A DNA stretch of 64,000 nucleotides from Bacteroidota bacterium. Its GTDB lineage: Bacteria; Bacteroidota; Bacteroidia; Flavobacteriales_F; PHOS-HE28. The stretch spans positions 8,391-72,390 of the forward strand of contig JAFEAI010000244.1 of NCBI GenBank assembly GCA_018266475.1, read 5' to 3'. This document shows positions 2 to 49,079 of the stretch, piece after piece (within the stretch, counting starts at the first letter, position 1; every line of letters begins with the position of its first letter). The notes under the pieces are model-generated. The model searched no databases. It saw nothing but the letters and a program-made list of their open reading frames with translations, and was not told where the DNA came from. A program made the position numbers and the translations under genes.

Positions 2-3000
2 ATGCTAACACCACTCGGCAATCGTACAGGAAACATCTTCGACCTCCTTCTCCCGCACCTTCAATCCTCCCCTTCGGCCCCGGCGATCACGGCAGGTGGC
101 ACCACCCTCTCCCGGGCCCAGATTGCCGCACAGGTATCCTGCATGGCCGGGCACCTGCACAAGCACGGTTTGGCACCGGGCCAAACCGTGGCCATCTGTC
201 TGGACCGCTCCCCGGAGCTGATCATCGCCGTGCTGGGCATCGTACAGGCCGGGGCGGCATACGTGCCCATCGACCCCGCATATCCTGTTGAGCGGATCGC
301 CGGCATGCTTGAAGATGCCAAGCCCCCGGTGGTGATCACCAGCAAGGAGCACCGGCACCTCTTCACAGGCACGGCGGCCAAAGTGCTGCTGATCGAGGAT
401 ATCGACCTCCTCACCCTCCCCCCCCTCTCCCAGGGAGAGTGGGCGCCCTGTCCTGCGACACCCGACGACCTGCTGTACGTGCTGTTCACCAGCGGCAGCA
501 CCGGCCGCCCCAAGGGCGTGGCCATGCACCACGCACCGCTCACCAACCTGATCCAATGGCAGCTGCGCACCAGTGTGTGCGGCGAGGGTGATCGCACCCT
601 GCAGTTCGCACCCATCAGTTTTGACGTGAGCTTCCAGGAGATCTTCACCACCTTCGCACAAGGCGGCACGCTGGTGCTGATCACCGATGAGGACCGCCTG
701 AACAGCACCCAGCTCCTGCGGAAGATCATCGCCGAGAAGATCAACCGAATCATCGTTCCCTTCGTGGCGCTGCAGTACTTGGCCGAAGCCGTGGAGCGTA
801 CCGGCGAAGTGCCTTCCACATTGAAAGAGGTTTTCACCAGCGGTGAGCAATTGAAGATCACCCCCGCGATCATCAACCTCTTCAAGCAACTGCCCGGTGT
901 GCGCTTCTGCAACCAGTATGGCCCCACCGAAGGCCACGTGGTGAGCGAGCTTGAGCTAAAAGGCGATCCATCCACCTGGCCCGCGCTGCCCAACATCGGC
1001 AAGGCCATCGACAACGTGAAGCTGCTCGTGCTTGATGAGCAGATGAAGCCGGTGAAGAAGGGTGAGGAAGGCGAGCTCTACCTCGGTGGTGCGTGCGTGG
1101 CCAAAGGCTACATCGGCCGTGATGACCTGACGGCGGAACGCTTCCTGGCGGATCCGTTCGTAAAGCCACCCTTCGGCTCCGCTCAGGGCAGGCTTTACAA
1201 GACCGGCGACCGCGCGGCGGAGCTGCCCAACGGCGAGATCGACTACAAGGGCCGCATCGATGGCCAAGTGAAGGTGCGCGGCTACCGCATTGAGCTGGGC
1301 GAAGTGGAAGTAGCCATGGAGAAACACCGTGCGGTGGAACAAGCCGTGGCCAACGTGCGGGAGGACCGTCCCGGATTGAAACGGCTGATCGGCTACTATG
1401 TGGCGAAGCAGGACGTGAGCGTGAACGAGCTGCGCAAGCACCTCGCTTCCCTCCTACCCGACTACATGGTGCCCTCGGCCTTCGTGGCGGTGAAAGAACT
1501 ACCGCGCACGCCAAGCGGCAAGATCGATCGCAAGGCCCTGCCCGCCCCCGATGTAAAACGCCCTGAATTGGACGTTGCGTTCGCCGCACCGCAAAGCGCC
1601 GTGCAGAAGACGCTCGCCAACGTGTGGGCCGATCTGCTCGGCATCGACCGCGTGGGCATCGACGACAACTTCTTCGACCTCGGCGGCAACTCACTGCTGA
1701 GCATCCAATGCGTGGCGCAGCTGGAAGGCCATGGTCTGAAACTGCCGATCGTGAAACTGTACCAGCATCCGACGGTGCGCGCGTGCGCGGCGTTCTTGGA
1801 AGACGATACGAACGCCGTATCGCCCGCCGAGATGGCGAAAGCCCGCGTAGGGGCGAGACATGTCTCGCCCGAAAAGCGGGACATCGCCATCATCGGCATG
1901 AGCGGCCGCTTCCCCGGTGCTGCCAACGTAGAGGAGCTATGGCTGAACCTGCTGGCCAAGAAGAACAGCATCAGCCGCTGGACGGCCGACGAGATCGACC
2001 CGAGCGTGCCCGCCGAGCTGCGCAACGACCCCGATTACGTGAAGGCGCGCGGCGTGATCGCCGACGCCGACAAGTTCGACGCGGGCTTTTTCGGCGTGAA
2101 CCCCAAGGTGGCCGCACTGATGGATCCACAACAGCGGGTATTCCTCGAAACGGCCTGGGCCGCGCTGGAGGATGCCGCATACGATCCCGCGCAATTCGCT
2201 GGCCTCATTGGCGTGTACGCCGGCATGGGCAACAACACCTATTACACGCGGAACGTCATCGGCCATCCCGAGCTCATCGAGCAAGTGGGCGATTTCCAGG
2301 TGATGACGGCCAACGAAAAGGACTACATCGCCACTCGGCTTGCGTTCGAGTTCGACCTGCGCGGACCCGCGATCAGCATGAACACCGCGTGCAGCACCTC
2401 GCTGGTAGCGATCGCACAAGCCTTCCAGGCCCTGCGCGCCGGCGAATGCGACATGGCGCTGGCCGGCGGCATCGCCATCACCGCGCCGATCAACAGCGGC
2501 ATCGTGTACAACGAGGGCGGCATGTACAGCCCCGACGGCAGCACGCGCACCTTCGATGCCGAGGGAAAGGGCACCAGCTTCAGCGATGGCGTGGGCATCA
2601 TCGTATTGAAGAGGCTGGATGATGCGATCCGCGACAACGACCACATCTACGCCACGATCAAAGGCGCCGCGCTGAACAACGACGGCAGCGACAAGGCCAG
2701 CTTCACCGCGCCCAGCGTGCGCGGGCAGGCCGAAGTGATCGCTATGGCACAGGCCGATGCAGGGGTGTCGCCGGATCAGATCAGCTACGTGGAAGCGCAC
2801 GGCACGGCCACGCCGCTTGGTGATCCCATTGAGGTGGAGGCGCTGACGTTGGCGTTCCGATCAGAAAATCAGAAAATCAGAAAATCAGAAAATGGAAATG
2901 CGCCACATTGCACCATCGGCTCCATCAAGAGCAACATCGGCCACCTTACCGCCGCCGCCGGTGCCGCAGGGGTGATCAAGACCGCACTCGCATTGCAGCA

Positions 3001-6000
3001 GGAGCAGATCCCTGCGAGCATAGGCTATGAAAAGCCGAACCCCGCGATCGACTTCGCGAACTCGCCGTTCCGCGTGGCGCAGGACAACATCGCCTGGCCG
3101 CGCACCGACGCACCGCGCATGGCGGGGGTGAGCAGCTTCGGCGTGGGCGGCACCAACGCGCACGTGATCATGGCGGAGCCGCCGGTGCTGGCAGCATCCG
3201 GCGCATCGCGCAGCAAGCAACTGTTCTTCCTCAGCGCAAAGAGCAAGACCAGCTTGGATGCCATGACGGAGAATTTCCGCCAGTGGCTTGCAGCGCACCC
3301 TGATGCTTCCCTTGCCGACGCCGCATACACGCTGCAAGTGGGCCGCCGTCACTTCAAACACCGCCGGTTGATCGTAGGTGGAAGTCACGGTGAAGTGATC
3401 GACGCGATCGCGAACAAGGACGCGCAGCTGATCGGCACACGCGAACTGCACGAGGCCGCACCGGGCGTGGTGTTCATGTTCCCCGGCCAAGGCTCGCAGT
3501 ATGTACACATGGGCCGCGACCTCTGCGAAAGCGAGCCGGTCTTCAAGCAGCATTTCGATCACTGCTGCGAGCTCTTCGGCAAGGAACTCGGCACCGATCT
3601 GAAGGCCATCATCTTCCCGAAAGCGGGTGAAGAAGAAAAGGCCGCCGGGCAACTGAAGCAGACCATCTACACGCAGGCTTCGCTTTTCACCATGCACTAC
3701 AGCCTGGCGAAACTGTGGATGTACTGGGGCATCACGCCCGATGCGATGATGGGCCACAGCATCGGCGAGTTCGCTGCGGCTTGTCTCGCTGGTGTGTTCT
3801 CATTGGAAGATGCCGTGAAGCTGGTGGCCAACCGCGGCCGCATGATGCAGGAACTGCCCGGCGGCAGCATGCTCAGCGTGCGCGCGACGGAGGAGGATGT
3901 AGCGAAGAAACTTCCCGCTGGCTGCTCGATCGCCGCCAACAATGGCACGCAATTGTGCGTGGCCAGCGGTCCGCATGAGGCGATCGCGAAGCTGCAAGCC
4001 GAACTGGAGAAAGAGGGCATCACGTGCAAGCTGCTCGTGACCAGCCACGCCTTCCACAGCCCGATGATGGACGCCATGGTGGCGCCGTACAAGAAGGTGG
4101 TGGAAAGCGTGAAGCTGAATGCGCCGCGCATTCCGATCATCAGCACGGTGACCGCCCAATGGCTGAAGGACGACGAGGCCGTATCACCCAAATACTGGAG
4201 CGACCACCTGCGTGCCACCGTGCGATTTGCACAAGCGGTGAAGTTCGCGTGGGACGATGCGAACAGGGTAATGCTGGAGGTAGGCCCGCGCACCACGGCC
4301 ACCACGCTGGCCCGCCAGCAAAGCAGCGATGCAAAGAAGCAAGCGGCGGTCCCTTCATTGGGCGATTCCGCAGGCAACGGCAACGAACTGGCGCAACTGC
4401 TGAAAGCCGTGGGCGGCCTGTGGCAGAGCGGCGTGCTGATCGACTGGAAGAAATTCCATGAGCGCGAGGAGCGCAGGCGGATCAGCTTGCCGACCTATGC
4501 TTTTGAACGGGTACGGCATTGGGTGGAACCGGTGGCCTTGCAGGGCGTAAATAGACATGATGGACGCGAATTGCCGTCCATCGCGTCCATTCCAGCGCCG
4601 CACACAGATGCGGGCCTTTCTCCCAAGGACCAACTGATCGCGCAGATCAAACATCTTCTGGAGGAAAGCTCCGGCCTGGAACTCGCCGAAGCCAGCAACG
4701 AGGAGACTTTCCTGGAGATGGGCCTCGACTCGCTCTTCCTCACGCAGGTGGCCACCTCGCTGAGCAAAAAGTTCGGCGTGAAGATCAGCTTTCGGCAGTT
4801 GAACGAGGAGCTGCCGAACCTGGAGAAATTGGCGGAACACTTTTTAGCGAATGGGGTGGGATCAGTTGTCAGTTCACAGTTGTCGGTTGTCAGTGCCCGG
4901 ACAACGGACAACCAACAACCAACAACTGCCTCCGCCCTCGAAGACGCCCCTGAACTGAAGAAAGCCTTCGGTGCCCAGGCGCGCATCAGCAAGGAAAAGG
5001 CGGACGACTTCACGCCGCAACAGCGCGCCTGGTTCACCGACTTCGTGAAGCGCTACACGGCCAAGACCGCCAAGAGCAAGGCTTTCACGCAGGAGAACAG
5101 GAAACCGATGGCCGACCCGCGCGTGGTCACAGGCTTCAAGCCGCAAACCAAGGAACTCACTTACCAGGTGGTGGTGGACCGCAGCAAGGGCTGCCACCTG
5201 TGGGACATCGACGGCAACGAGTATGTGGACATCCTCAGCGGCTTCGGCTCGTCGATGTTCGGCTATATGCCCGACTTCATCAAGGAAGCGTGCCACGACC
5301 AGCTTGAAAAGGGCACGGAGATCGGGCCCATGCACCCGCTTGCAGCGGAAGTATCGAAGTTGCTGTGCGAACTCACCGGAGCCGAGCGCGCGGCCGTTTG
5401 CAACACCGGCAGCGAGGCCGTGCTGGGCGCCATGCGCATGGCCCGCACGGTGACGGGCCGCAGCCTGATCATCTCCTTCAGCGGCAGCTACCACGGCATC
5501 AACGACGAGGTGATCCTCCGCGGCAGCAAAAGCCACAAGAGCTACCCCGGCGCGCCCGGCATCATGCCCGAGGCCGTGCATAACATGCTGGTGCTGGACT
5601 ACGGCACGCCCGAAAGCCTGGAGATCATCAAGCAGCACTGCCACGAAGCCGCCGCCGTGCTGGTGGAACCCGTGCAGAGCCGCCGCATGGAGTTCCGCCC
5701 CGTTGATTTCCTGCGCGAGGTGCGCCGCATCACGAAAGAGCACGGCACCGCGTTGATCTTCGATGAAGTGATCACCGGCTTCCGCATGCACCCGAACGGC
5801 GCACAGGGCCTCTTCGGCATCAAAGCCGACATCGGCACCTACGGCAAGGTGATCGGCGGTGGCATGCCCATCGGCGCCATGATCGGCAGCCGCCCGTGGA
5901 TGGACGCGCTGGACGGCGGCGATTGGCGCTTCGGCGACGACAGCGTGCCCGAAGCCGGAGTGACCTACTTCGCAGGCACGTTCGTGCGCCATCCGTTGAC

Positions 6001-6547
6001 GCTCGCCGCCATGAAGGCCTCACTGCTGTACATGAAACGTGAAGGCCCCGCCTTGCAGGAACGGCTCAACGGGCTCACCCAAGGCATGGTGGAACGCGCC
6101 AATGCGCTCTTCGACCGCTACCAGCTTCCGTACCGCTGGGTACACTTCGGCAGCGCATTCAAGACCAAGTACGACGAAAGCGTCAACTACACCGAGTTCT
6201 TCTTCATGCTGATGCGCCTGCATGGCGTGCATGTGCTGGACTTCCCGCACTTCCTCACCACGGCGCACACGGAAGCGGACGTGGAATTCATCCTCACCGC
6301 CCTGGAGAACACCTGCAAGGAATTGCGCAACAGCGGCTTCATGCCGGAGCGCACCTATCCCCTGGCCGTGGTCAACAGCACCTTGAACGGGCACGCCTTC
6401 AAGCCAAGTGAACTGGTGGTAGAGGCCAGTGAACCGCCCGTGCCCGGCGCCCGCCTGGGCCGTACGCAGGAAGGCGAGCCCGGCTGGTTTGTTCCCGACC
6501 GTGAGCGGCCGGGAAAATTCATTCAACTCGTGGAGCACGGACAATGA
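2..6547 (+). CDS. Hybrid NRPS-PKS megasynthase, 5'-truncated at window start. Domain order: A (partial) - PCP - KS - AT - ACP - class III PLP aminotransferase (AMT). No KR/DH/ER seen.
   Basis: ORF has no start codon at the window edge. A-domain cores LYVLFTSGSTGRPKGV (A3), NQYGPTE (A5), YKTGDRAAELPNGEIDYKGRIDGQVKVRGYRIELGEVE (A7/A8). PCP FFDLGGNSL (~nt 1665-1697). KS DIAIIGMSGRFPG, DTACSTSL (Cys codon ~2391), HGTATPLGDP. AT GHSIGEF (~3751-3771). ACP LGLDSLFLTQV (~4722-4742). C-terminal ~530 aa aminotransferase-III-like (DGNEYVDILSGFGSSMFGY, YGKVIGGGMPIGA with PLP-Lys candidate ~5845). Confidence 0.9.
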   Translation: MLTPLGNRTGNIFDLLLPHLQSSPSAPAITAGGTTLSRAQIAAQVSCMAGHLHKHGLAPGQTVAICLDRSPELIIAVLGIVQAGAAYVPIDPAYPVERIAGMLEDAKPPVVITSKEHRHLFTGTAAKVLLIEDIDLLTLPPLSQGEWAPCPATPDDLLYVLFTSGSTGRPKGVAMHHAPLTNLIQWQLRTSVCGEGDRTLQFAPISFDVSFQEIFTTFAQGGTLVLITDEDRLNSTQLLRKIIAEKINRIIVPFVALQYLAEAVERTGEVPSTLKEVFTSGEQLKITPAIINLFKQLPGVRFCNQYGPTEGHVVSELELKGDPSTWPALPNIGKAIDNVKLLVLDEQMKPVKKGEEGELYLGGACVAKGYIGRDDLTAERFLADPFVKPPFGSAQGRLYKTGDRAAELPNGEIDYKGRIDGQVKVRGYRIELGEVEVAMEKHRAVEQAVANVREDRPGLKRLIGYYVAKQDVSVNELRKHLASLLPDYMVPSAFVAVKELPRTPSGKIDRKALPAPDVKRPELDVAFAAPQSAVQKTLANVWADLLGIDRVGIDDNFFDLGGNSLLSIQCVAQLEGHGLKLPIVKLYQHPTVRACAAFLEDDTNAVSPAEMAKARVGARHVSPEKRDIAIIGMSGRFPGAANVEELWLNLLAKKNSISRWTADEIDPSVPAELRNDPDYVKARGVIADADKFDAGFFGVNPKVAALMDPQQRVFLETAWAALEDAAYDPAQFAGLIGVYAGMGNNTYYTRNVIGHPELIEQVGDFQVMTANEKDYIATRLAFEFDLRGPAISMNTACSTSLVAIAQAFQALRAGECDMALAGGIAITAPINSGIVYNEGGMYSPDGSTRTFDAEGKGTSFSDGVGIIVLKRLDDAIRDNDHIYATIKGAALNNDGSDKASFTAPSVRGQAEVIAMAQADAGVSPDQISYVEAHGTATPLGDPIEVEALTLAFRSENQKIRKSENGNAPHCTIGSIKSNIGHLTAAAGAAGVIKTALALQQEQIPASIGYEKPNPAIDFANSPFRVAQDNIAWPRTDAPRMAGVSSFGVGGTNAHVIMAEPPVLAASGASRSKQLFFLSAKSKTSLDAMTENFRQWLAAHPDASLADAAYTLQVGRRHFKHRRLIVGGSHGEVIDAIANKDAQLIGTRELHEAAPGVVFMFPGQGSQYVHMGRDLCESEPVFKQHFDHCCELFGKELGTDLKAIIFPKAGEEEKAAGQLKQTIYTQASLFTMHYSLAKLWMYWGITPDAMMGHSIGEFAAACLAGVFSLEDAVKLVANRGRMMQELPGGSMLSVRATEEDVAKKLPAGCSIAANNGTQLCVASGPHEAIAKLQAELEKEGITCKLLVTSHAFHSPMMDAMVAPYKKVVESVKLNAPRIPIISTVTAQWLKDDEAVSPKYWSDHLRATVRFAQAVKFAWDDANRVMLEVGPRTTATTLARQQSSDAKKQAAVPSLGDSAGNGNELAQLLKAVGGLWQSGVLIDWKKFHEREERRRISLPTYAFERVRHWVEPVALQGVNRHDGRELPSIASIPAPHTDAGLSPKDQLIAQIKHLLEESSGLELAEASNEETFLEMGLDSLFLTQVATSLSKKFGVKISFRQLNEELPNLEKLAEHFLANGVGSVVSSQLSVVSARTTDNQQPTTASALEDAPELKKAFGAQARISKEKADDFTPQQRAWFTDFVKRYTAKTAKSKAFTQENRKPMADPRVVTGFKPQTKELTYQVVVDRSKGCHLWDIDGNEYVDILSGFGSSMFGYMPDFIKEACHDQLEKGTEIGPMHPLAAEVSKLLCELTGAERAAVCNTGSEAVLGAMRMARTVTGRSLIISFSGSYHGINDEVILRGSKSHKSYPGAPGIMPEAVHNMLVLDYGTPESLEIIKQHCHEAAAVLVEPVQSRRMEFRPVDFLREVRRITKEHGTALIFDEVITGFRMHPNGAQGLFGIKADIGTYGKVIGGGMPIGAMIGSRPWMDALDGGDWRFGDDSVPEAGVTYFAGTFVRHPLTLAAMKASLLYMKREGPALQERLNGLTQGMVERANALFDRYQLPYRWVHFGSAFKTKYDESVNYTEFFFMLMRLHGVHVLDFPHFLTTAHTEADVEFILTALENTCKELRNSGFMPERTYPLAVVNSTLNGHAFKPSELVVEASEPPVPGARLGRTQEGEPGWFVPDRERPGKFIQLVEHGQ
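4862..4928. repeat. In-frame palindromic heptamer-repeat block (AGTTGTC/GGTTGTC units then reverse complement GACAACGGACAACCAACAACCAACAACTG) inside the NRPS-PKS ACP-AMT linker; encodes SQLSVVSARTTDNQQPTT.
   Basis: Direct reading: cagttgtcagttcacagttgtcggttgtcagtgcccggacaacggacaaccaacaaccaacaactg. Same heptamer family as the arrays at 32796-32892 and 35461-35480. Confidence 0.7.
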
Positions 6548-6584
6548 CCCCGGGCTTCCGTTTTACTCCCACCGCAGCGTGACC

Positions 6585-9500
6585 ATGGAAAAGTTCATCC
6601 CGGAAACCACCGCCGTGCCTGTTGCCCATGATCCGTTCAGCGGCCCCGCCATCCAGCGGACCATCCCCACCACGGAATCGCAGATGGAGGTGTTTGCCGC
6701 CTCGGAGATGGGCAACGAGGCCAATTGCGCATACGTGGAAAGCATTTCGCTGGTGCTCACGGGCAAGCTGGTACAACCGGCCCTGGAAACGGCGCTTCAG
6801 GACCTGACCGCGCGCCACGAAAGCCTGCGCAGCACCATCAGTCCCAACGGCATGCGCATGGTGGTGCTCGAACGGATGACCCTCCCCACCCCGTTCGAAG
6901 ACCTCTCCGGCATTGATGAACCGGCCCGGCGCTCGCGCATGGAGCAGCTTGCCGAAGAGGACATGCGCCGGCCTTTCGACCTGGTGAGCGGCCCATTGTT
7001 CAGGGTATCCCTCACCAAGATCGCACCCGACCGGCACGTGCTGCGCCTGAGCGGCCACCACGCCGTGCTGGACGGGTGGAGCCTCGGCATCCTGATGGCC
7101 GAGATCAGCGCCCTCTACAATGCGCGCTTGGCCGGCACCGCACCGGCCCTTCCTGCGGCGGATCCGTTCAGCCGCTACGTGCGGGAAACCATTGCGTTTT
7201 CCAAGAGCAGTGCGCAGGCCGCCGTAGAGCAATACTGGACCGGACTGTACAGGGATTCCGTGCCGCGCCTGGACCTGCCCACGGACCGGCCGCGGCCGGT
7301 GCCCAAAACCTTCAACGGCCACCGCCTGGACCTTGCGATGGACCGGGAACTTGTGCGCGGCCTGAGATCCGTGGCCACGCGCAACGGCGCAAGCTTCGTC
7401 ACCACCCTGCTTTGCGCATTCGAACTGCTGCTGCACAAGCTCACCGGCCAGCACGAAATTGTGACCGGGCTGCCTGCGGCAGGCCAAAGCGACCTGGGCA
7501 TGAAGCACCTGGTGGGGCACTGTGTAAACCTGCTCGCCCTGCGCAGCCGGATCGATGACGAAGAATCCTTCGACCAATACCTGAAGCAGCGCCGCACCGA
7601 GGTGCTCGATGCCTTCGACCACCAGAAGTACACCTTCGGGACGCTGCTGCAAAAACTGAAGGTGCCGCGGGAGCCGGGCCGCATTCCACTGGTGCCCGCC
7701 GTGTTCAACATCGACATGAACATGGACGACGGGGTGTCCTTCACCGGGCTGGCACACCGCTTCGTGAGCAACCCCAGGCACTACGAAAACTTCGAGCTTT
7801 TCCTGAACGCCACCGGGCAGGGCGACGACCTGGTGCTGGAATGGAGCTATAACACGGACCTCTTCGACAAAGCGACCATCCGCAGTTGGATGGACCAGCT
7901 ATCCACCCTGGTGCGGCGGATCGGCGGCAACAGCGCCCTGCCGATCGGCGCCCTGTTGGGCGAGGAAGAACCTTCCGCCCATAAAATGCCTTTGCCCGAA
8001 TGGCACGGCACCGCCACGGACATCCCGCGCGGAACCAGCATCGGCGCATTGTTCGACGAAGTGGCCGCCGCACACCTCGCAAGCCCCGCGCTAGTAGCAC
8101 CGGACGGCGAATGGAGCTACGCGAAATTGCACGACCGTACACTGTCCATGGCATCGGCACTGCTGGCGGCAGGCGTAAAACCCGGCGACCCGGTGGGCCT
8201 GTGCACCGACCGTTGCGCGGACATGGTTGCGGCCATGCTTGCCATCCTGCGCTGCGGTGCCGCCTTTGTGCCCTTCGACCCCGCCTACCCCGCCGACCGC
8301 CTGGAGTACATGTTGCAGGACACGGGCATCCGCGTGCTGATCACGCAACGGCACCTTTCGGCGGCCTTGCCCAGGCATGATGCACGCACCTTGTTCGTGG
8401 AAGACCTGCACGGTGCCGAAGCCCCGCAGCCCGCCGCCGGCGGCCCTGATTCACCGGCGTACATCATGTACACCTCCGGTTCCACGGGCAAGCCCAAGGG
8501 CGTGGTGGTGCCGCACCGCGCCGTGATCCGCCTGGTGCGCAACCAGAACTTCCTGCCCTTCGGACCCGACCTCACCTTTCTGCAACTTTCCAATATCTCC
8601 TTTGACGCCTCCACACTGGAGCTATGGGGAGCGCTCCTGAACGGGGCACGGCTTGTGCTGCAACCCCAGCAGAAGCCAACCCTGCAGGAGGTCATCGACA
8701 CCATCCACAAGCACCGTGTGACCACGGTATGGTTCACCGCGGGCCTGTTCAACCTGATGGTGGACGAGCACCTGGAACAATTGCACGGCCTCAGGCACAT
8801 CCTGGCCGGCGGCGATGCGCTCAGCGTGCCCCACGTAAAGCGTGCCCTGCGCACCTTGGGGCCAGGCATACTGATCAACGGGTACGGCCCCACAGAGAAC
8901 ACCACCTTCACCTGCTGCCATGCCATAAATGATTTGCAGGCCCTGCAAACCCGCGTGCCCATCGGCAAACCCATCGCGAACACCACGGCCTACATCCTGG
9001 GCCCCGACATGCAGCCGGTGGCCATAGGGGAGAAAGGCGAACTGTACACCGGTGGCGAAGGCGTTGCCCTGGGGTACTGGCAGCAGCCGGAACTGACCGC
9101 CGCGCAATTCATTCCGGACCCGTTCAGCAAGCATCCGAACGCCAAGCTCTACCGCACGGGCGACCAGGTGCGGTGGCTGCCCGACGGCACCATCGACTTC
9201 CTGGGCCGCGGCGACGGCCAGGTGAAGGTGCGCGGATTCCGCGTGGAGCTCGGCGAGATCGAGAACGCCATCAGCGCGGTGGCTGGCGTGAAGGACCGCG
9301 TGGTGGTTGCGCGCAACGACGGGCCCGGGGAAAAACAACTGGCGGCCTACTTGGTGCCGGCACAGCATGCGGGCGACGGTGACGCCCAGGAAGCACTGAT
9401 CAAGCAAGTGCGCGACCACCTGCGCCAAACCTTGCCGGACCACATGGTGCCTTCGGCCTTCGTGATCCTTGCCGAGCTGCCGCTTACCGCAAACGGAAAG

Positions 9501-10535
9501 GTGGACAAACGGGCATTGCCGATTCCTGAACACCGGTCGCAGACCTTGGCGGCGGGCCATGTGGCACCGCGGAACGACAAGGAGGAACGCATCGCGGAGA
9601 TCTGGGGCCAGCTGCTGAACGCACCCGGAATCGGCGTACACGACAACTTCTTCGACCTTGGCGGCCATTCCCTGATCGGCATCCAGCTGCTGGCGCGCGT
9701 GGAGGAGCAGTTCGGCAAACGCCTGCCACTGAACTCCCTGTTCCAGGCGCCCACCGTGGCGGCATTCGCCAAATTGGTACACAGCAAGAACGCCGCCAGC
9801 GGCCTGAAAAACCTGGCCGCCCTGCAACCTGAAGGCACGCGCACGGCCTTCTTCTGCGTGCATGGCGATGAACTGAACCACCACATCATGCGCCACCTCG
9901 GCAAGGACCAGCCCTTCTTCGCCTTCTTCCACCAAGGAGAGAACGGGCAGCGGTTTGAGCACTTCACGGTGGAGGACATTGCCGCGCACTACATGCACGA
10001 ACTGCTTACGGTGCAGCCCGAAGGGCCTTTCCTGCTCGGCGGATATTCCTTCGGCGGGATCGTGGCGTACGAAATGGCCCAGCAGCTCACCAAGGCCGGG
10101 CATGAAGTGCCCTTCCTTGCCTTGTTCGACATGCCCGCGCCGGAATTGTTCGTGCAGAGCATGCGCAGCGAGCGCAAACTGCACGAACCCGTACGGGACG
10201 TGGTGGTCCGCTGGCTCGCAAAACGCGCGTTCGCCAAGGGGCGCATCCGCTCGCCGCGCCTGCAGCACTACTACATCATCGACAACTACAACAAGGCCAT
10301 CCAGGCGTACCGGCCAAAGCCGTACGGCGGGCCTGTCACGGTGTTCAAGGCCTCGGGAACCACAGGCCCGGACGACCTCGGCTGGGCCAAGCTGGTAACA
10401 GGCCCGTTGGACGCCCGCGTATTGCCGGGCGACCACTACAGCCTGATCAGGGAACCCGGGGTTGCGCGCTTAGTGAAGGAACTGGGCGCAGCCATCGACC
10501 GCTCCACCCTGCGGCATGCGGTGGAGGCCGTATAA
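6585..10535 (+). CDS. NRPS termination module: C - A - PCP - TE.
   Basis: ATG at 6585 (MEKFIPETT...), 38 nt after the upstream stop. The ORF-track start at 6429 lies inside the previous gene. C-domain HHAVLDGWS (~7058). A-domain [74 protein letters not shown] (~9647). TE GYSFGG (~10040). Confidence 0.9.
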   Translation: [1316 protein letters not shown]

Positions 10536-10537
10536 CC

Positions 10538-11287
10538 ATGCCCAGCCCCCGGACGCTCACCATACACTGCGCAGCTGCCGTACACGCCCGCACTGAACAC
10601 CCGCCACCGGGCGCGCCGGACAGCGCAGAAGCGTGGGTGTACTTCGGCAGCATCAGCTCCCTGGCGGCAAGAAGCGCGCACTTCCTTTCCCTGCTCGATG
10701 CCGAGGAGCTGGCACGCGCGGACCGCTTCCGGTTTGCCCAGGACCGTGAGCGCTTCATTGCGGGGCACGGGCTGCTGCGGGAGCTTCTGGGCCAACAACT
10801 TCACCGGCACCCCAAGGACCTGGTGCTGCTGCGCGGGGAATTCGGAAAACCCTTTCTGGAAGGAGGCCCGCTGCACTTCAACCTCAGCGACACCAAGGAT
10901 GCCGTCCTGGTGGCCTTCTCGCGGCAACCGATCGGTGCGGACATTGAAACGATCAACCGCCACACGGACCATGCCGCCGTGGCCAACCATTACTTCACGC
11001 CGGCGGAAGTGCGCAGCATCGCCACCGCCGTGGATGCCAAACGCAGGTTCCTGGAACTGTGGACGCGCAAGGAAGCCGTGCTGAAGGCCTGCGGCGTGGG
11101 CCTGATGGACGACCTGCAGAGCTTGGAGGTGAACGGGCCAACGAACTTGATGACGATCACCCACCCCGAATTCGTGCGGATGGCGGCGCCTGCATACTAC
11201 GTGCGGACCCTGCTGGCCGGCACGGACCACTTCATCAGCGTGGCCACGGCACAGGCGGTCCACTCGGTGCGGCTTTTCACCGCATAG
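10538..11287 (+). CDS. Sfp-type 4'-phosphopantetheinyl transferase.
   Basis: ATG 3 nt after the NRPS stop. Motifs GKPFL, FNLSDTKDAVLVAFSRQPIGADIE, WTRKEAVLKACGVG (W/FxxKEA..K PPTase signature). Position immediately downstream of the TE-ending NRPS. Confidence 0.8.
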   Translation: MPSPRTLTIHCAAAVHARTEHPPPGAPDSAEAWVYFGSISSLAARSAHFLSLLDAEELARADRFRFAQDRERFIAGHGLLRELLGQQLHRHPKDLVLLRGEFGKPFLEGGPLHFNLSDTKDAVLVAFSRQPIGADIETINRHTDHAAVANHYFTPAEVRSIATAVDAKRRFLELWTRKEAVLKACGVGLMDDLQSLEVNGPTNLMTITHPEFVRMAAPAYYVRTLLAGTDHFISVATAQAVHSVRLFTA

Positions 11288-12794: not shown

Positions 12795-12820
12795 GCCGTC
12801 TTTCGGTAGTTCCTTTGCAG

Positions 12821-13630
12821 ATGGCCATGACGAAGACCGAGCTTTTTCATCCGCGCTACACGCCCGGGGCCGAGCGCACCTGGCATTTGGCCTGCTGGCT
12901 GGCGCCCGGCCTGCAGGCGTGGTGCGTGCATGAGCGCTCCAGCGGCCTGCTGATGGCATTGGTCGCGGGGGATGGCGACCTGTTGCCCTTGGCCGACAAA
13001 CTGCCCGCCGTGCCGGCCAGCACCTCCTTCACCGCCATGCCCGAAGTGAGCACATTGGTGCCGCAAAGCGCATTGGAGCCCGGCACGGAGATGCAGCACT
13101 TGAAGCTGGTACACGGCACCGTGCCCACGGGCCTGCTTCGCGACGAGCCCATCGGCACCCTGGGCGCACAGTGCATCTACCTGCATGATGAGCTCGTGGA
13201 ACGCAAGCTCCTTGAACGTTTTCCGGGGGCGCGCCCGCTACCGCTGCAGGCCACCCTGGTACACCATGCGCTTTCGCATGCAACTACCGGCGCACTGGCG
13301 GTGGTGTTCCGCACCTCCACCCGGCTGGACCTGGTGATCGCGGACCAGGGGCGGCTGCTGCTGAGCAACACCTTTTTCGCCACCACGCCGGAGGATGTGC
13401 TCTACTATACGCTCTTCTGCGTGAAGCAGTGCGGCCTGCGCCCCGACGGGATGGTGCTGCGCGCCGGCGGCACACACCTCACCGCCACCGAGGAGCATGT
13501 GCTTTCCTCCTATTTCCCCAATGGGCCCGTGCCCACCACCGGTTCCAAGGACCCGGCACTGGCGGAGCTGCGCATACCCGACGCGCACCACTGGACGGGC
13601 CTGACCGAACAATTCCGATGCGCATCGTAG
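12821..13630 (+). CDS. Hypothetical protein, length and context consistent with Bacteroidota DUF3822 family (unverified).
   Basis: ATG at 12821 (MAMTKTELF...); the track start at 12815 is TTG. ~270 aa, sits immediately upstream of rsmD-coaD. Family call is from memory of gene neighbourhoods only. Confidence 0.4.
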   Translation: MAMTKTELFHPRYTPGAERTWHLACWLAPGLQAWCVHERSSGLLMALVAGDGDLLPLADKLPAVPASTSFTAMPEVSTLVPQSALEPGTEMQHLKLVHGTVPTGLLRDEPIGTLGAQCIYLHDELVERKLLERFPGARPLPLQATLVHHALSHATTGALAVVFRTSTRLDLVIADQGRLLLSNTFFATTPEDVLYYTLFCVKQCGLRPDGMVLRAGGTHLTATEEHVLSSYFPNGPVPTTGSKDPALAELRIPDAHHWTGLTEQFRCAS

Positions 13631-19767: not shown

Positions 19768-19846
19768 ACAGGGGTGCTGCGCCATCGGGGGGCAGGGCAG
19801 ACGCATCAAAAACCAAGCGATCAAAACATCGGCGTGAAAATCAAGG

Positions 19847-19955
19847 ATTTGAAGTTGGCCCTTCGGCTCCGCTCAGGGCAGTTCATGTTTATCATCCAGT
19901 CACTAACGAAACATTGCCCTGCGAAGCCGCTCCTCGGCCTCGCCCGAAGGGCCAA
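19847..19955. repeat. Intergenic inverted-repeat element: outer 10-bp IR GGCCCTTCGG / CCGAAGGGCC, inner CAGGGCA / TGCCCTG, AT-rich 45-nt loop, T6 run 19 nt downstream (19974-19979). Contains the 23-mer also found in the NRPS CDS.
   Basis: Direct reading of both arms. Lies in the 340-bp gap between the ABC exporter and the next gene. Confidence 0.45.
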
Positions 19956-20108
19956 CCAAGTACAGCATCGTGTTTTTTCAAGCATGGTGGGCATTCCTGT
20001 CCGTGATGCTATACTGGCTTGGCCAATTTGATGCGTTTGCCCTGCATCCGAGGTACAACCAATCGGCAAGTCGGCTTATGTTTAGGACCTTCCCCCAGCA
20101 CCGTATCC

Positions 20109-24295: not shown

Positions 24296-24460
24296 TTGCG
24301 AGTGTGGGAGTCGGGAGTGCGGGGAGTCGGCAGTCGGGAGCTGGGAGTTGGAAGTCGGCAGTCCGGCAGTCCGGCAGTCTGCAGTCGGCAGTCGGCAGTC
24401 GGCAGTCGGCAGTCGGCAGTCCGGGGAGTCGGCAGTCCGGGAGTCGAACTCACGACTCAA
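24296..24460. repeat. ~18 tandem copies of heptamer GGCAGTC/GGGAGTC (GGNNGTC family), ending in hairpin GAGTCG-aactca-CGACTC (24443-24460).
   Basis: Read directly in the tgt-to-lptF/G intergenic region; produces the artefactual SRQSAVG / PTADCRL repeat ORFs on both strands. Confidence 0.8.
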
Positions 24461-24501
24461 AACTCGGAACGCACGTCCATAAAGAGCGACCTTTGCACCG
24501 C

Positions 24502-25647: not shown

Positions 25648-25854
25648 TACCAACGTGACAAGCAGATCCGTACAACGGACGATCTGCCTGCCTACCGTAG
25701 TGCATGCCGTGCGTACAAGCAAATGGGCGGACATGGGGATGCCTATGTGGCTTCCGGCATTGCCGCCCTGCATGATGAAAGGCCACAGTGCCACCTGCCG
25801 CAGCGCCGCGAAACCGCTATCGGACCAAGTTGCCCGCCACTACGGCATGGGGGC

Positions 25855-27443: not shown

Positions 27444-27533
27444 GCCGCGAAATAGCGCATCATGCGGCCAGCGGCGACTGACGTTTGGCAGAATTTCACG
27501 GCATGCCCGCACGATGCCGGTACTTTTGCACGC

Positions 27534-28244: not shown

Positions 28245-28326
28245 CCTGCCCGCCCCCGGTACGGCATTCCAAGGGCCGTGCATCACACCACCCGCACGCT
28301 TCGGCGTACTTCGCCGGGCACCGCGC

Positions 28327-32782: not shown

Positions 32783-32795
32783 ACGGGGACAGGGG

Positions 32796-32892
32796 TGTTG
32801 GTTGTCAGTTGTCGGTTGTCGGTTGTCGGTTGTTGGTTGTTGGTTGTCAGTTGTTGGTTGTCAGTTGTTGGTTGTCAGTTGTCGGTTGTTGG
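32796..32892. repeat. 13 tandem heptamers GTTGTCA/GTTGTCG/GTTGTTG in the convergent intergenic region; last units encode the DUF488 C-terminus (PPTTDN).
   Basis: Direct reading: gttgtcagttgtcggttgtcggttgtcggttgttggttgttggttgtcagttgttggttgtcagttgttggttgtcagttgtcggttgttggggg. Confidence 0.8.
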
Positions 32893-33462
32893 GGGTGCAG
32901 GGCGATCGGGCGACCGCGCAAAGGGAACGGCTGATTCCAAAGGGCCGTAGAGCAGCTTGCCACCCTTCAGGCGCGCCGCACCGGTCCAGGGGTGTTCCTC
33001 CGCCTTCCCCAGGCCCATGATGTGCCATACCCGCCATCCGTCCGCCTTCAGCCTGTCGGCGATCATGGAGCGGTGGCAGCGCCACCACAGCGCCTCGCTG
33101 CACATGATGCAGGTGCGCTGCCCGGCGGCAAGTTCCTTCAGCTCCGCCAGGCCCTGCCCAAAGGCCGGGTCGTTCATCATATAGTCCGCATAGCTGCGGA
33201 AGGCCGGATGCCGCCACACCGTGTTCACCGAATCCTTCAGCACCTTGCGCCTGCCGCCCAGTGCCCGCAGGTGTACGTAGCCGATGCCCGCCGCGGCCAG
33301 TTCCTTCGGCAGCAGTTCCCTGTGCGCCCAGGGCACGTGGCGCGAGCCCGGAAAGCTGCGCACATCGGCCAGCAGCCCGATCTTGAACGCCTTCAGCCAC
33401 TCCAGGAACTCCGGCAATTCATGCACGGAATGCCCGATCGTCCACAACTCCTTCTTCGCCAT
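32875..33462 (-). CDS. DUF488 family protein.
   Basis: MAKKELWTIGHSVHELPEFLEWLKAFKIGLLADVRSFPGSRHVPW typical DUF488 N-terminus. Confidence 0.7.
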   Translation of the reverse strand: MAKKELWTIGHSVHELPEFLEWLKAFKIGLLADVRSFPGSRHVPWAHRELLPKELAAAGIGYVHLRALGGRRKVLKDSVNTVWRHPAFRSYADYMMNDPAFGQGLAELKELAAGQRTCIMCSEALWWRCHRSMIADRLKADGWRVWHIMGLGKAEEHPWTGAARLKGGKLLYGPLESAVPFARSPDRPAPPTTDN

Positions 33463-35430: not shown

Positions 35431-35460
35431 GCTGGTGGCTCGTAGTGCCATCGTCGGCAG

Positions 35461-35480
35461 CCCGACGCCCGGCAACCAAC
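35461..35480. repeat. Single CAACCAACAACTG unit (reverse complement of CAGTTGTTGGTTG) next to hairpin CGTCGG-cagc-CCGACG in the convergent gap between ABC-F and rluD.
   Basis: Read directly at 35440-35480. Confidence 0.5.
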
Positions 35481-35496
35481 AACTGGCATCTACAGC

Positions 35497-36603
35497 CTAC
35501 TTCAACTTGTTCGCCTCCTCGGCATCAAATGCCTCCCCCGGCTCGTCCAGCGGGCGGGCGCTGGTATAGGTGCGCCACCGGGCCAGCACCGCCTGCATGT
35601 CCGCAGGCAGCGGGCTTTCAAACCGCATGCGCTTCCCGGTCGCAGGGTGGTCGATGGCCAGCATGGCCGCATGCAGTGCCTGGCGCGGCAGCAGCCGGAA
35701 GCAATTCTCCACGAACTGCTTGTATTTGGAGAATACCGTGCCCTTCAGCACACGGTCGCCGCCATACGCCGCATCATTGAACAGCGGATGGCCGATGTGC
35801 CTCATGTGCGCACGGATCTGGTGCGTGCGGCCCGTTTCCAGCTTGCACTCCACCAAGGTGACATAGGTGAAGCGCTCCAGCACCTTCCAATGCGTGATGG
35901 CGGTTTTGCCCTGTTCCGGGTCGGCGGGCACCGACATCACGGTACGGTCCTTGGGGGAGCGGTCCAGGTTGCCTTCGATGGTGCCCTCATCGGCATCGAA
36001 ATCGCCCCACACCAGCGCCTGGTAGCGGCGGTCGTTGGTGCGCTCAAAGAACTGGCGTGCCAGGTGGGCCATGGCATCCTCGGTCTTGCCCACCACCATT
36101 ACGCCGCTGGTGTCCTTGTCCAGCCGGTGTACCAGGCCGGGCCTTGGCACGGGCTGGTTGGGCGCCGAGGGCAGCTTGCCGAAATGGAACAGCAAGGCGT
36201 TCACCAGCGTGCCCGTCCAATTGCCGTGGCCCGGGTGTACCACCAGGCCCGCCTGCTTGTTGAGCACCAGGATCTGGTCATCCTCGTACAGCACCTCCAG
36301 GGGAATGTCCTCCGGCAGCAGCTCCACCTCCCGCACGGGATGCGGCAGCACCAGGGTCACCACATCCTTGGGCTTCACCTTGTAGCTGGGCTTTTCGGCC
36401 CTGCCGTTCACCAGTACGTTGCCGTTGCGGGCCGCAGCGGCGATGCGTGAACGCGAGGCGCCGCCGATGTGGTCGAAGAGAAATTTATCCAGCCGCACCA
36501 AGCCTTGCCCGGGATCGGCCACCACGCGGTGATGCTCATAGAGCTCCTGCTCGTCGCCCGCATCCTCCGCGGCCCGGCCGGATGTTCCGTTGTCCTTCAC
36601 CAT
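35497..36603 (-). CDS. rluD: 23S rRNA pseudouridine synthase, RluA/RluD family.
   Basis: S4 domain (RLDKFLFDHIGGASRSRIAAAARNGNVLVNG); catalytic HRLDKDTSGVMVVGK. Confidence 0.85.
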   Translation of the reverse strand: MVKDNGTSGRAAEDAGDEQELYEHHRVVADPGQGLVRLDKFLFDHIGGASRSRIAAAARNGNVLVNGRAEKPSYKVKPKDVVTLVLPHPVREVELLPEDIPLEVLYEDDQILVLNKQAGLVVHPGHGNWTGTLVNALLFHFGKLPSAPNQPVPRPGLVHRLDKDTSGVMVVGKTEDAMAHLARQFFERTNDRRYQALVWGDFDADEGTIEGNLDRSPKDRTVMSVPADPEQGKTAITHWKVLERFTYVTLVECKLETGRTHQIRAHMRHIGHPLFNDAAYGGDRVLKGTVFSKYKQFVENCFRLLPRQALHAAMLAIDHPATGKRMRFESPLPADMQAVLARWRTYTSARPLDEPGEAFDAEEANKLK

Positions 36604-48939: not shown

Positions 48940-49079
48940 TATTGAGTCGGCACAAAATGATTGACGATTCGACCTTGTGAAATTTCCTTGATGATCTGGC
49001 GAGGGGCTTCGGCTCCGCTCAGCCCAGTGTATCTGATTACTTTGCAGACAACCGTCAACTATTCAAGGCCGACTCAATA
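48940..49079. repeat. Intergenic IR element: 12-bp IR TATTGAGTCGGC / GCCGACTCAATA flanking a 16-nt core CTTCGGCTCCGCTCAG (49007-49022) shared with 1169-1191 and 19849-19871. Followed by GNRA hairpin ATGCGCC-gcaa-GGCGCAT (49199-49216).
   Basis: Direct reading; in the 393-bp gap upstream of the FkbM gene. Confidence 0.4.

Follow-up and report, generated by a model that had tools for sequence, protein, structure and literature searches.

Cyanobacteria have been known since about 1990 to carry tandem arrays with a 7-nt unit. The classical STRR1-3 units differ from the CAACTGA-type unit considered here, and Vioque is said to have found in 1997 that an STRR is tolerated within a functional RNase P RNA gene. 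REP/BIME elements are short, dispersed and foldable, with some copies in convergent gaps, and have a unit of ~20-40 nt that is an imperfect palindrome. Rickettsia palindromic elements (RPE), which Ogata and co-workers reportedly found in 2000 to be inserted in frame in protein genes, are single-copy-type palindromes of 100-150 bp and not 7-nt arrays.

The class of heptamer repeats found in cyanobacteria, sulfur bacteria and Bacteroidetes is known already, and the element in the window (the whole stretch of 64,000 nt that was analysed) belongs to it. Like this element, the cyanobacterial STRR sequences are dispersed 7-bp tandem repeats with a function described as unknown and with the ability to form hairpins between genes, e.g. 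hupS/hupL (PMC2670836), but the host here is a high-G+C 'Flavobacteriales' MAG lineage. Heptamer direct repeats with the unit TAACTGA are present in Beggiatoaceae, Thiocystis, Cyanobacteria and Bacteroidetes (MacGregor 2015, PMC4679880), and Thiocystis and Bacteroidetes are among the carriers of the present family also. TAACTGA is one base from CAACTGA, and the two are mixed within arrays. The TAACTGA repeats are also alike in that they may overlap gene ends and provide stops, that other heptamers are intermixed with them, that strains differ in 7-nt steps, and that 'reverse' copies in ORFs encode S-V-[IV]-S-x-Q-L at the protein periphery (PMC4679880). They are mostly intergenic with 'forward' copies just upstream of start codons (PMC4679880), as is the family described below, whereas the GTTGTC-type copies of the window are not so placed. 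Further differences are the G+C-richer unit, found only as rare pairs in the MacGregor 2015 genome, a far wider spread (Acidobacteriota, Planctomycetota, Chloroflexota and others), 26 inverted pairs here against a single 'indirect repeat' there (PMC4679880), and an in-frame inverted pair in a megasynthase linker that is conserved across species.

As summarised in PMC4679880, heptanucleotides are the commonest class of long simple sequence repeats in prokaryotes (Mrazek et al. 2007), and those repeats share with the present ones the unit of 7, a sporadic phylogeny, a proposed origin by slippage and the rarity in coding DNA of units that are not multiples of 3. In that summary the work is a statistical survey without a CAACTGA-type unit, start-codon polarity or in-frame inverted copies.

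Heptamer arrays of the window

A sequence-only reading had placed heptamer repeats at four loci, and repeats are present at each of them. The features discussed below are:

2..6547, plus strand: host gene of the linker block, a FAAL-ACP-KS-AT-ACP-aminotransferase hybrid PKS/NRPS (Pfam)
4863..4891, plus strand: 5' arm of the linker block, C AGTTGTC AGTTCAC AGTTGTC GGTTGTC, encoding SVVSSQLSVV (register from alignment A4)
4892..4899, plus strand: loop/spacer of the linker block, 8 nt, AGTGCCCG
4900..4928, plus strand: 3' arm of the linker block, GACAACG GACAACC AACAACC AACAACT G, encoding TTDNQQPTT
24296..24460, plus strand: G-rich array between tgt and an lptF/G-like gene, GGGAGTC then GGCAGTC, ~17-18 units including a few 8-nt units
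32796..32892, plus strand: (RGTTGTY)n tandem array in the gap between SCO1 and DUF488, ~13.5 units of GGTTGTC / AGTTGTC / GGTTGTT
32875..33462, minus strand: DUF488 gene (Pfam), C-terminal tail encoded by the array
35437..35497, minus strand: degenerate hairpin in the gap between convergent ABC-F and RluD-like genes
49047..49060, minus strand: possible two-unit remnant AGTTGACGGTTGTC in the intergenic region 48890-49282, weak

Matches to RGTTGTYRGTTGTY with up to 2 mismatches number 25 in the window against 2.76 expected, a count reached in 0 of 100 shuffles, and 20 or 21 of them fall in the three named sites. Within the 64 kb there are three loci and one remnant in which A/G and C/T variants are mixed, and GGCAGTC units are confined, within the window, to the 24.3 kb array. 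The possible remnant at 49047-49060 has a copy of the CTTCGGCTCCGCTCAG module ~25 nt away, and isolated hits like it are about as many as chance predicts. The CCTTCGGCTCCGCTCAGG hairpin module is present in 33+ copies. Searching the literature for the heptamers as literal strings gave only irrelevant primer matches, and the 18-mer module was not found in the literature searched. No match to Rfam 15 was found at gathering score over the whole window, nor at E<=1 over 19760-20030, the window contains no tRNA or tmRNA genes, and a promoter and terminator scan at the sites returned nothing.

The 24.3 kb array is bounded by the tgt stop (24295) and the start of the lptF/G-like gene (24502), and ends in a small GAGTCG-loop-CGACTC hairpin. 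Tandem Repeats Finder gives 16.7 copies of period 7 at 24325-24446, and a degenerate array extends over 24309-24446. Five G3-4 tracts are present in the 5' part (24306-24350), and the remaining units are GGCAGTC with GG only, so that any predicted quadruplex would be confined to the first ~45 nt. Quadruplex-forming heptamers are GGGNATC in Xanthomonas and GGGGA(C/T)T in Nostoc (Rehm et al. 2015, PMC4692102). As far as that account extends, the likeness concerns the 24.3 kb array only, both being G-rich on the sense strand and located between aligned ORFs right after a stop, but the units here are GGGAGTC/GGCAGTC and not GGGNATC, and number 17-18 rather than the favoured four (PMC4692102). An exact look-up of the window Tgt protein gave no match, probably owing to start-codon choice. 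The unit count is the same in a sister strain (98.8% DNA identity to the window; comparison set L297-L306), with one 1-nt indel, showing that not every array is unstable.

The 32.8 kb array lies in a gap on which SCO1 (plus strand, ending at 32782) and DUF488 (minus strand) converge. At 32796-32889 Tandem Repeats Finder counts 13.4 copies of a 7-nt period, and 6.7 copies of a 14-nt period with 91% matches. The minus-strand reading of the array is (Y)GACAAC/CAACAAC, and DUF488 draws its six terminal codons (PPTTDN) and its TGA from it, as had been proposed. In the sister strain the same gap holds ~30 units in three blocks, with embedded palindromic GC-rich modules, against 13 in the window, and DUF488 is longer by 15 aa, ending in ...PPTTDNRQPVLSGAEGPTTDN rather than ...PPTTDN. 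Intergenic arrays are thus quick to change length, and in one case such a change gives DUF488 a different C-terminus, though the difference between 13 and ~30 units could partly reflect repeat collapse in short-read assembly. An assembly or sequencing artefact as the source of the repeats is hardly credible; tandem arrays do break short-read assemblies, and 5 of the 10 sister-strain contigs terminate inside the array, but five separate metagenome assemblies agree exactly on the ~30-unit compound array, and the linker block is found with its reading frame kept in independent assemblies of separate projects (window, L001, L002, L307 and L308). When the array is read as ACAAC-strand RNA, its MFE over 118 nt is only -1.4 kcal/mol, and the array folds no better than shuffles (z +1.2 and +1.4).

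At 35.47 kb a single reverse-complement unit had been recorded beside a hairpin at 35461-35480. Two units, AGTTGTTGGTTGCC, are located there at 35471-35484, and they form the 5' arm of the minus-strand hairpin, which folds at -37.1 kcal/mol (z -3.4; plus strand z -1.3). The hairpin is identical in the sister strain, and its 13-mer CAACCAACAACTG is identical to 4914-4926 in the linker block. As an account of the better antisense folding, a simple strand-biased C-to-T change would fit both hairpins, but not the 32.8 kb array.

The in-frame block of the ACP-aminotransferase linker

In the host gene, called as 2182 aa in the sister strain, Pfam matches place the second ACP at nt 4643-4840 and the aminotransferase (AMT) from nt 5159. 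The segment 4863-4928, directly after the second ACP, is an in-frame inverted pair of 4+4 heptamer units, and 4862-4928 translates in ORF 2..6547 as SVVSSQLSVVSARTTDNQQPTTA. The peptide SVVSSQLSVV...TTDNQQPTT corresponds to the translations tabulated for CAACTGA (QLTTDN- forward, SVVSCQL reverse; MacGregor 2015, PMC4679880), and peptides of the form S-V-[IV]-S-x-Q-L (reverse) or L/Q-[IT]-T-D-N (forward) occur, in a peripheral or interdomain position, in both the linker and the PPTTDN* tail of DUF488. It had been suggested that a hairpin-forming repeat is tolerated in this linker, and the in-frame block between ACP and AMT bears this out. The 'perfect-ish palindrome' claimed for 4862-4928 exists as an inverted pair but is imperfect, with 22 of 29 register positions pairing in a hand count on alignment A4. 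Exact inverted runs are only 6-7 nt, for which reason an inverted-repeat search with seed 8 did not recover the palindrome; Tandem Repeats Finder reports three period-7 rows within 4862-4926.

The block is identical in the 98.8%-identical strain (L307/L308), including the 3' arm, and its length is unchanged between strains whose intergenic array has more than doubled. Comparison across strains, which the earlier reading had recommended, gives equal counts at the linker and tgt-lptF sites and unequal ones at SCO1/DUF488. Intact copies of the block are present in L001 and L002 (flanking protein 86-87% identical) and decayed ones in L004, L313 and L003, and six other close orthologues have unrelated Ala/Gly linkers of similar length. 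Taken together, decayed or missing blocks are those of L003, L004, L313 and L217-L222. Identity over the block among the three intact species is 0.79-0.88, compared with 0.58-0.66 at flanking third codon positions, and 0.61-0.65 against L004; the best conserved part across species is the 3' arm. Orthologues that share the peptide (L001, L002, L307/L308) also share the nucleotide repeat, so the finding that would have counted against the repeat, the same peptide in relatives without nucleotide repetitiveness, was not made.

The loop is 11 nt in orthologues (AGTGGCAGCCG / AGGGGCAGCCC) and 8 nt in the window. The loop sequence GGCAGCC recurs in L001, L002, L313 and at 35457. A conserved loop was considered and rejected, as the loops of inverted pairs in other contigs are unrelated.

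Folded as the sense strand, the block reaches a predicted -33.6 kcal/mol with a z-score of -3.3; for the antisense strand the values are -38.3 kcal/mol and -4.9. Hairpin z-scores range from -3.3 to -6.7 overall. Antisense function was the first reading of the better antisense fold and was not upheld. The idea that translation starts internally, behind the ACAAC arm, was dropped, as there is no in-frame start codon downstream of the block.

A selected RNA or DNA structure, slowing the ribosome for co-translational folding or serving as an mRNA processing site, would account for a block that is conserved like the domain-coding flanks, far above third-position identity, and fixed in length. The sense-strand z-scores of -3.3 to -4.6 and the inner 13-bp stem are consistent with it, the stem being retained in three species with pair exchanges that altered two pairs on both sides (the loop-closing pair from C-G to T-A, and an inter-unit pair that is G.G, G.U or A-U). 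However, the stem is degrading in its outer half (7/29 positions unpaired in the window), folding is better on the antisense than on the mRNA strand, and L004, L313 and most other orthologues have no block. Covariation among the three intact sequences is not significant, 114 of 500 shuffles reaching the observed value, and both exchanged variants are ordinary family units that correction of one arm from the other explains equally well. This explanation is considered doubtful. Conservation of the block could instead come from constraint on the peptide or from recent shared ancestry, with no role at the nucleotide level.

Inverted pairs elsewhere typically lie between the end of one gene and the start of the next, with the ACAAC arm beside the start, which raises the possibility that the block is a relic of gene fusion, a former intergenic hairpin and leader between separate ACP and AMT genes that became coding after stop loss. 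A fusion origin was rejected and is very improbable, since ACP and AMT are fused in every homologue examined, with a linker of similar length, including Verrucomicrobiota-labelled homologues at 64-69% identity. The sole split (L003) is upstream of ACP and not at the linker, and the missing start codon after the block also stands against it.

The block resembles RPE in behaviour only, being a dispersed hairpin-forming repeat that is in frame at a structurally permissive interdomain site, supplies an extra or replacement peptide, and is absent or decayed in some orthologues. Unlike RPE, it shows no sign of recent mobility. Two independent in-frame copies of small repeats occur in one PKS/NRPS gene.

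Distribution and orientation of the family

The arrays are genuine; they are related to one another, dispersed, and present in many phyla. The pattern (GTTGTCR)3GTTGTC was found at no fewer than 120 loci (>=120) in contigs taken from one genome per species, and the matches listed include Cyanobacteria (with GTTGTC(A/G) arrays in Calothrix, Dolichospermum, Microcoleus and Anabaena), Acidobacteriota, Planctomycetota, Bacteroidota, Chloroflexota, Thiocystis, Poribacteria and others. In this genome scan the unit occurs in at least about a dozen named lineages and is not lineage-specific. Culturable carriers include Hymenobacter saemangeumensis JCM 17923, Flavobacterium arsenatis and Salinimicrobium sp. 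WS361. When GTTGTT units are admitted, as (GTTGTYR)3GTTGTY, 92 stretches of viral contigs match. Comparison of Flavobacteriales-labelled loci with the window by blastn gave array-to-array matches only and no synteny. TGATAAC (=TAACTGA) and TGACAAC units are intermixed within single arrays in L107 and L116, and in other phyla GGCAGTT/GGGAGTC units pass straight into GTCAGTT/GGTTGTC units in the same register (L129, L161, L166, L181 and L209), which agrees with the earlier view that the units form one related, dispersed family.

Polarity is strict, in that the strand reading (GACAACY)n faces a start codon a few bases downstream. Among the matches listed, an ORF start, taken heuristically as ATG followed by >=80 open codons, is located <=60 nt downstream in the ACAAC orientation for 56 of 109 arrays and in the opposite orientation for 1 of 109; within ~20 nt the numbers are 37 and 0. 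Inverted arrays are always ordered GTTGTC arm, loop, GACAAC arm (26 pairs, with 0 in the reverse order, among the matches listed). The window GTTGTC-type copies, by comparison, lie in convergent gaps or coding DNA, and none is upstream of a start codon.

Behaviour like that of REP elements had been proposed for the window copies. A REP/BIME-like family would consist of extragenic palindromes located at the 3' ends of genes, which a dedicated transposase spreads and which serve as terminators or stabilise mRNA. REP/BIME sequences are alike in being short, dispersed and foldable with some convergent-gap copies, and two GTTGTC-type sites (32.8 kb and 35.47 kb) are indeed in convergent gaps, the G-rich array begins directly after the tgt stop, two sites can form hairpins, and palindromic GC-rich modules lie inside the sister-strain array. 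However, the basic element is a direct 7-nt array without a fold of its own and not a 20-40 nt palindrome, length changes occur in repeat units as slippage predicts, and arrays across phyla precede start codons in a strictly polar manner. The region 24000-36000 has 8 terminator-like sites, a count below the shuffle mean, and none of them overlaps an array or hairpin. A clearly convergent position is found for 7 of 108 arrays among the matches listed, so that the three window sites at 3' ends or in convergent gaps fall in a minority class, and arrays are not typically placed at gene 3' ends. These comparisons do not support the proposal, and a REP/BIME-like nature is unlikely.

Origin and possible role of the arrays

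The preferred reading, with a probability of about 0.65, is that the arrays belong to the STRR / TAACTGA-type class of simple-sequence repeats with heptanucleotide units, as a G+C-richer version of it (units CAACTGA, CAACCGA and CAACCAA, with GGCAGTC and GGGAGTC related), and that the linker block is an old in-frame inverted pair of such units. Slipped-strand mispairing would expand and contract the arrays in 7-nt steps. In the usual position an array, whose RNA in the ACAAC orientation would be essentially unstructured, may help translation to start, as a leader or spacer, or may be bound by a protein. The window copies lie outside that position (convergent gap, remnant and coding linker), and would be mostly tolerated rather than needed. 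Any function in the window is probably slight, and no direct conclusion on the GTTGTC-type copies of the window follows from the leader role inferred for the family, because these copies are not upstream of start codons. Slippage alone leaves the recurrence of one heptamer across so many phyla unexplained.

Under the same reading, 4863-4928 would represent the in-frame gain of an inverted pair in a shared ancestor of several species, at what appears to be the most permissive place of the gene, the hypervariable stretch directly after ACP. The block would have remained open in frame because GTTGTC units are without stops and the ACAAC arm has C/G variants or is out of frame with TGA, and its length may now be held by selection on the frame. 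The inner 13-bp stem and the 3' arm appear about as conserved as the surrounding coding sequence, which could stem from a modest RNA- or DNA-level role or from concerted correction between arms.

A more ambitious proposal combines several parts and can be put forward only tentatively, and with low probability as a whole, on the basis of arrangement and predicted folding. (GACAACY)n would be a cross-phylum leader free of a Shine-Dalgarno sequence, proposed because of the strict start-codon polarity and near-zero structure, and the inverted form a switch that hides the leader. Repeats, including the CCTTCGGCTCCGCTCAGG module, would repeatedly supply large enzymes with in-frame linker and loop sequence, and the linker copy would be under selection at the nucleotide level.

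For annotation, heptamer arrays break assemblies, lengthen ORF calls and change C-termini. Within one species there is a natural contrast between an array outside genes, which grew more than twofold and changed the end of a protein, and an in-frame copy that is unchanged. Heptamer repeats can be absorbed as a PKS/NRPS interdomain linker and persist across species. The 56-to-1 start-codon bias, seen over about a dozen or more lineages among the matches listed, makes the leader hypothesis testable in culturable carriers.

Heptamer sites in the window

Heptamer units occur at the four positions where the sequence-only reading had placed them, and three of these sites were also recovered by Tandem Repeats Finder.

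Heptamer features of the window
4863-4891, linker block 5' arm: C AGTTGTC AGTTCAC AGTTGTC GGTTGTC
4892-4899, linker block spacer: AGTGCCCG
4900-4928, linker block 3' arm: GACAACG GACAACC AACAACC AACAACT G, four reverse-orientation units
24325-24446, period-7 array of 16.7 copies (Tandem Repeats Finder), with degenerate units from 24309
32796-32889, period-7 array of 13.4 copies, also found as period 14 with 6.7 copies and 91% matches (Tandem Repeats Finder)
35.47 kb, minus strand, two units: AGTTGTTGGTTGCC

Two consecutive RGTTGTY units with no more than 2 mismatches match 25 times in the window (63% G+C) against 2.76 expected by chance, a level reached by 0 of 100 shuffles. All except four or five of the matches fall within the 4.9, 32.8 and 35.5 kb sites, and GGCAGTC-type units are confined in the window to 24.3 kb. 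SCO1 (plus strand, stop at 32782) and a DUF488 gene (minus strand) converge on the gap that holds the 32.8 kb array. As had been proposed, the array writes the end of DUF488, providing on the minus strand both the final six codons (PPTTDN) and the TGA. The first base of the 24.3 kb array directly follows the tgt stop, and ∼40 nt separate its end from an LptF/LptG-type gene. At 35.47 kb, in the gap between convergent ABC-F and RluD-like genes, the reported hairpin is present, but in place of a single unit beside it there are two units that form the 5' arm of the minus-strand hairpin (-37.1 kcal/mol, z -3.4). The plus strand here folds no better than shuffles (z -1.3) because the partner arm pairs via G.U, and both window hairpins, this one and the linker block, fold better on the minus strand. 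No terminator-like site coincides with the 32.8, 24.3 or 35.47 kb site, and no Rfam family or tRNA gene was matched anywhere in the window. Homologues of three window proteins carry the names of 'Flavobacteriales bacterium' or 'Bacteroidetes bacterium' MAGs.

Distribution and polarity of the unit family

The heptamer unit is not private to the lineage of the window. Four GTTGTYR units are found in 92 stretches of viral contigs, and the stricter (GTTGTCR)3GTTGTC is present at 120 or more loci in a one-genome-per-species collection. The matches listed amount to a sample rather than a full census; among their carriers are Calothrix, Dolichospermum, Anabaena, Microcoleus, Moorena, Thiocystis, Endozoicomonas, Hymenobacter, Flavobacterium and Salinimicrobium, as well as MAGs labelled Saprospiraceae, Acidobacteriota, Thermoanaerobaculia, Planctomycetota, Chloroflexota, Poribacteria, Omnitrophota and Latescibacterota. 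The earlier grouping of the two unit types under GGNNGTC is supported by arrays from other phyla in which GGCAGTT/GGGAGTC units pass directly into GTCAGTT/GGTTGTC units in one register (loci L129, Pirellula; L161, Chloroflexota; L166, L181 and L209, Thermoanaerobaculia). Loci L107 and L116 combine TGATAAC (equivalent to TAACTGA) and TGACAAC units within single arrays.

TAACTGA direct repeats have been described in Beggiatoaceae, Thiocystis, Cyanobacteria and five Bacteroidetes (MacGregor 2015, PMC4679880), where most are 'forward' and followed within a few nucleotides by a start codon; some run across stop codons, copies in ORFs at the protein periphery are 'reverse', and no mechanism of spread was evident. 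The same paper lists CAACTGA as a one-base relative with the translations QLTTDN- and SVVSCQL (section 8 table), each of them matching one half of the window's linker peptide. Heptanucleotides are the commonest class of long prokaryotic simple-sequence repeats, for which slippage is the proposed source (Mrazek et al. 2007, as summarised in PMC4679880). Cyanobacterial STRRs are 7-bp repeats able to form hairpins between genes, with a function described as unknown (PMC2670836), and the title of a 1997 paper reports STRRs inside the RNase P RNA gene. A Nostoc preprint describes contiguous heptamers near start codons or promoters, the deletion of which alters a reporter. The published class closest to the G-rich 24.3 kb array is GGGNATC / GGGGA(C/T)T (Rehm et al. 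2015).

Polarity was scored for 109 arrays of at least 4 units, >300 nt from a locus end, drawn from the 120 genome loci listed, by counting an ATG that opens at least 80 codons and starts no more than 60 nt beyond the array. Such an ATG lies downstream in the ACAAC orientation, the strand that reads (GACAACY)n, for 56 of the 109 arrays and in the GTTGT orientation for only 1; within ∼20 nt the counts are 37 and 0. The GTTGT count is a fair control because both flanks of each array were tested alike. By coarser position classes, 55 of 108 arrays are upstream of a start and 7 are clearly in convergent gaps, as is the array of the window, with the remainder by one gene end or unclassified. Among inverted pairs whose arms are no more than 45 nt apart, 26 have the order GTTGTC arm-loop-GACAAC arm and none the reverse, as expected if the ACAAC arm must face a downstream start. 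RNA of the ACAAC strand of the 32.8 kb array is almost unstructured (-1.4 kcal/mol across 118 nt). The REP-like behaviour previously proposed is not supported, as the units are direct 7-mers and not palindromes, and the dominant position of the family, upstream of starts, also differs.

The viral-labelled contig IMGVR_UViG_3300043379_000009 (L009, L027, L047, L066; 42.6 kb, 62% G+C) contains ∼25 GACAAC-type arrays or inverted pairs in ∼31 kb, several of them 4-20 nt upstream of an ATG, and this unusually dense carrier could serve for a per-genome study. In L313, an 85%-identical relative, the gene after PPTase starts 30 nt beyond a (GCCAAAC)4.3 array (12805-12834), another C/A-rich heptamer in a leader position.

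The linker block and its orthologues

The linker block is held in frame by ORF 2..6547 (peptide SVVSSQLSVVSARTTDNQQPTTA), for which Pfam predicts AMP-binding, PP-binding, KS, AT, PP-binding and class-III aminotransferase domains. The second carrier domain (ACP) ends at nt 4840 and the aminotransferase (AMT) match starts at nt 5159, and the block therefore begins seven codons past the ACP. Three short period-7 rows fall within 4862-4926 (Tandem Repeats Finder). The inverted pair of the sequence-only reading is real, but 'perfect-ish' overstates it, as the window has 22 of the 29 register positions paired (hand count, alignment A4 of orthologues); the inner 6+6 bp are perfect except for one G.G. 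RNA folding predicts -33.6 kcal/mol (z -3.3) for the sense strand and a more stable -38.3 kcal/mol (z -4.9) for its antisense.

Past the ACP, close orthologues (protein identity 76-87% over the ACP-AMT alignment) have a stretch of broadly similar length and hypervariable sequence. The inverted block is intact at the DNA level in L001 (GCA_018267065.1) and L002 (GCA_035399445.1), present as a decayed copy in L004, and reduced to fragments in L003 and L313 (AGTGCCGGACAACC; GGTCGACCAGTGGCAGCCG). Six metagenome orthologues have Ala/Gly-rich linkers unrelated to the block, one made of a different 12-nt repeat. Among the window, L001 and L002, block identity is 0.79-0.88, and the flanks are 0.79-0.83 identical overall and 0.58-0.66 at third codon positions; identity of the block to that of L004 is 0.61-0.65, approximately the third-position rate. 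The 3' arm is almost invariant while the outer 5' arm is decaying (alignment A4). The inner stem is a perfect 13 bp in L001, with one G.U in L002 and one G.G in the window, and the loop-closing pair is T-A in L001 and C-G in the other two species. By formal count over these three sequences, two stem pairs have both sides changed, but 114 of 500 shuffles match this covariation, which is therefore only suggestive.

The host gene forms a small cluster (window 2-11287; also L003, L307, L308 and L313) of FAAL-ACP-KS-AT-ACP-AMT, C-A-T-TE and PPTase genes, which is conserved, with 56-74% identity, in >100 'Flavobacteriales' MAG proteins. L003 has its first gene split at a point upstream of the second ACP. 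In L220 (1702-1905) the linker is replaced by another in-frame repeat, roughly (GGTGCAGGAGCA)n, encoding (GA)n, which suggests that this position is generally repeat-prone. The spacer motif GGCAGCC (4892-4899), one base off the GGCAGTC unit, is seen again at 35457-35463 beside the 35.47 kb remnant, in the linker-hairpin loops of L001 and L002 and in the decayed linker of L313. It could represent one unit of the G-rich family or a chance match.

Strain variation and interpretation

Contigs encoding P0121, a 98% identical DUF488 homologue, share 98.8% identity with the window across 20 kb and represent a sister strain. Copy number, which the sequence-only reading had proposed comparing across strains, does differ: the SCO1/DUF488 gap of the sister strain holds ∼19 + 8 + 3 units against 13.4 in the window, in blocks with two hairpin modules of GC-rich sequence, GGTCCCCTGAGCTTGGCCGAAGGGCGGCTCCGCTCAGGACC and GGTCCTTCGGCTCCGCTCAGGACC, between them. 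This compound array is identical across five metagenome assemblies, and five more contigs end within it. The sister-strain DUF488 reads on to ...PPTTDNRQPVLSGAEGPTTDN* and is 15 residues longer. The tgt-lptF array differs by one base and the 35.47 kb site not at all. The sister strain also carries the PKS/NRPS gene, in which the linker block matches the window base for base, with substitutions present a few codons upstream.

Other differences and repeats were also seen. A 5.1 kb segment (41048-46179; G+C down to 0.55) coding for a DegT-type aminotransferase, a GNAT acetyltransferase and a family-2 glycosyltransferase is missing from the 98.8%-identical strain and is probably a strain-variable surface-glycan island. 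An exact 16-mer, CTTCGGCTCCGCTCAG, has three copies in the window (1166-1191, 19856-19881 and 49002-49022), the first two sharing 22 identical nt around it, and the module also breaks up the sister-strain heptamer array (L297). The copy at 1166-1191 is an in-frame 18-nt (6-aa) insertion (DPFVKPPFGSAQGRLYKTGD) directly before the FAAL-domain YxTGD motif, present in the sister strain and missing from orthologues L313 and L003. Exact copies of the 18-mer CCTTCGGCTCCGCTCAGG occur in 33 viral-labelled contig stretches (L314-L346, IMG/VR; G+C 0.40-0.68). The sequences on either side can often pair with each other, so that a conserved 14-nt loop sits on a variable stem. GCAGGC often comes after the 18-mer, and ∼17 of 39 copies fall in long open frames, where they read as FGSAQG or LSGAEG. 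It had no Rfam match, and the string was not found in the literature searched.

The window elements belong to a described class of heptamer simple-sequence repeats and are dispersed, phylogenetically widespread and polar relative to start codons. For at least one intergenic copy, the instability suffices to alter a protein tail between near-identical strains, and the linker copy is old, in frame, length-stable and conserved across three species. The observation of the sequence-only reading thus holds, and its interpretation does in part. Arrays would grow and shrink through slipped-strand mispairing, and in its usual place the ACAAC orientation may serve as an unstructured leader or in protein binding. 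The copies in the window would be mostly tolerated passengers. The linker copy would derive from a single acquisition by a common ancestor of the window, L001, L002, L004 and probably L313, and would afterwards have decayed wherever nothing maintained the block. In its behaviour the linker copy is closer to the in-frame Rickettsia palindromic element than to REP, as a resemblance and not as membership. What stands out is polarity that holds across phyla, stable and unstable copies within one species, and a repeat hairpin absorbed into a megasynthase linker.
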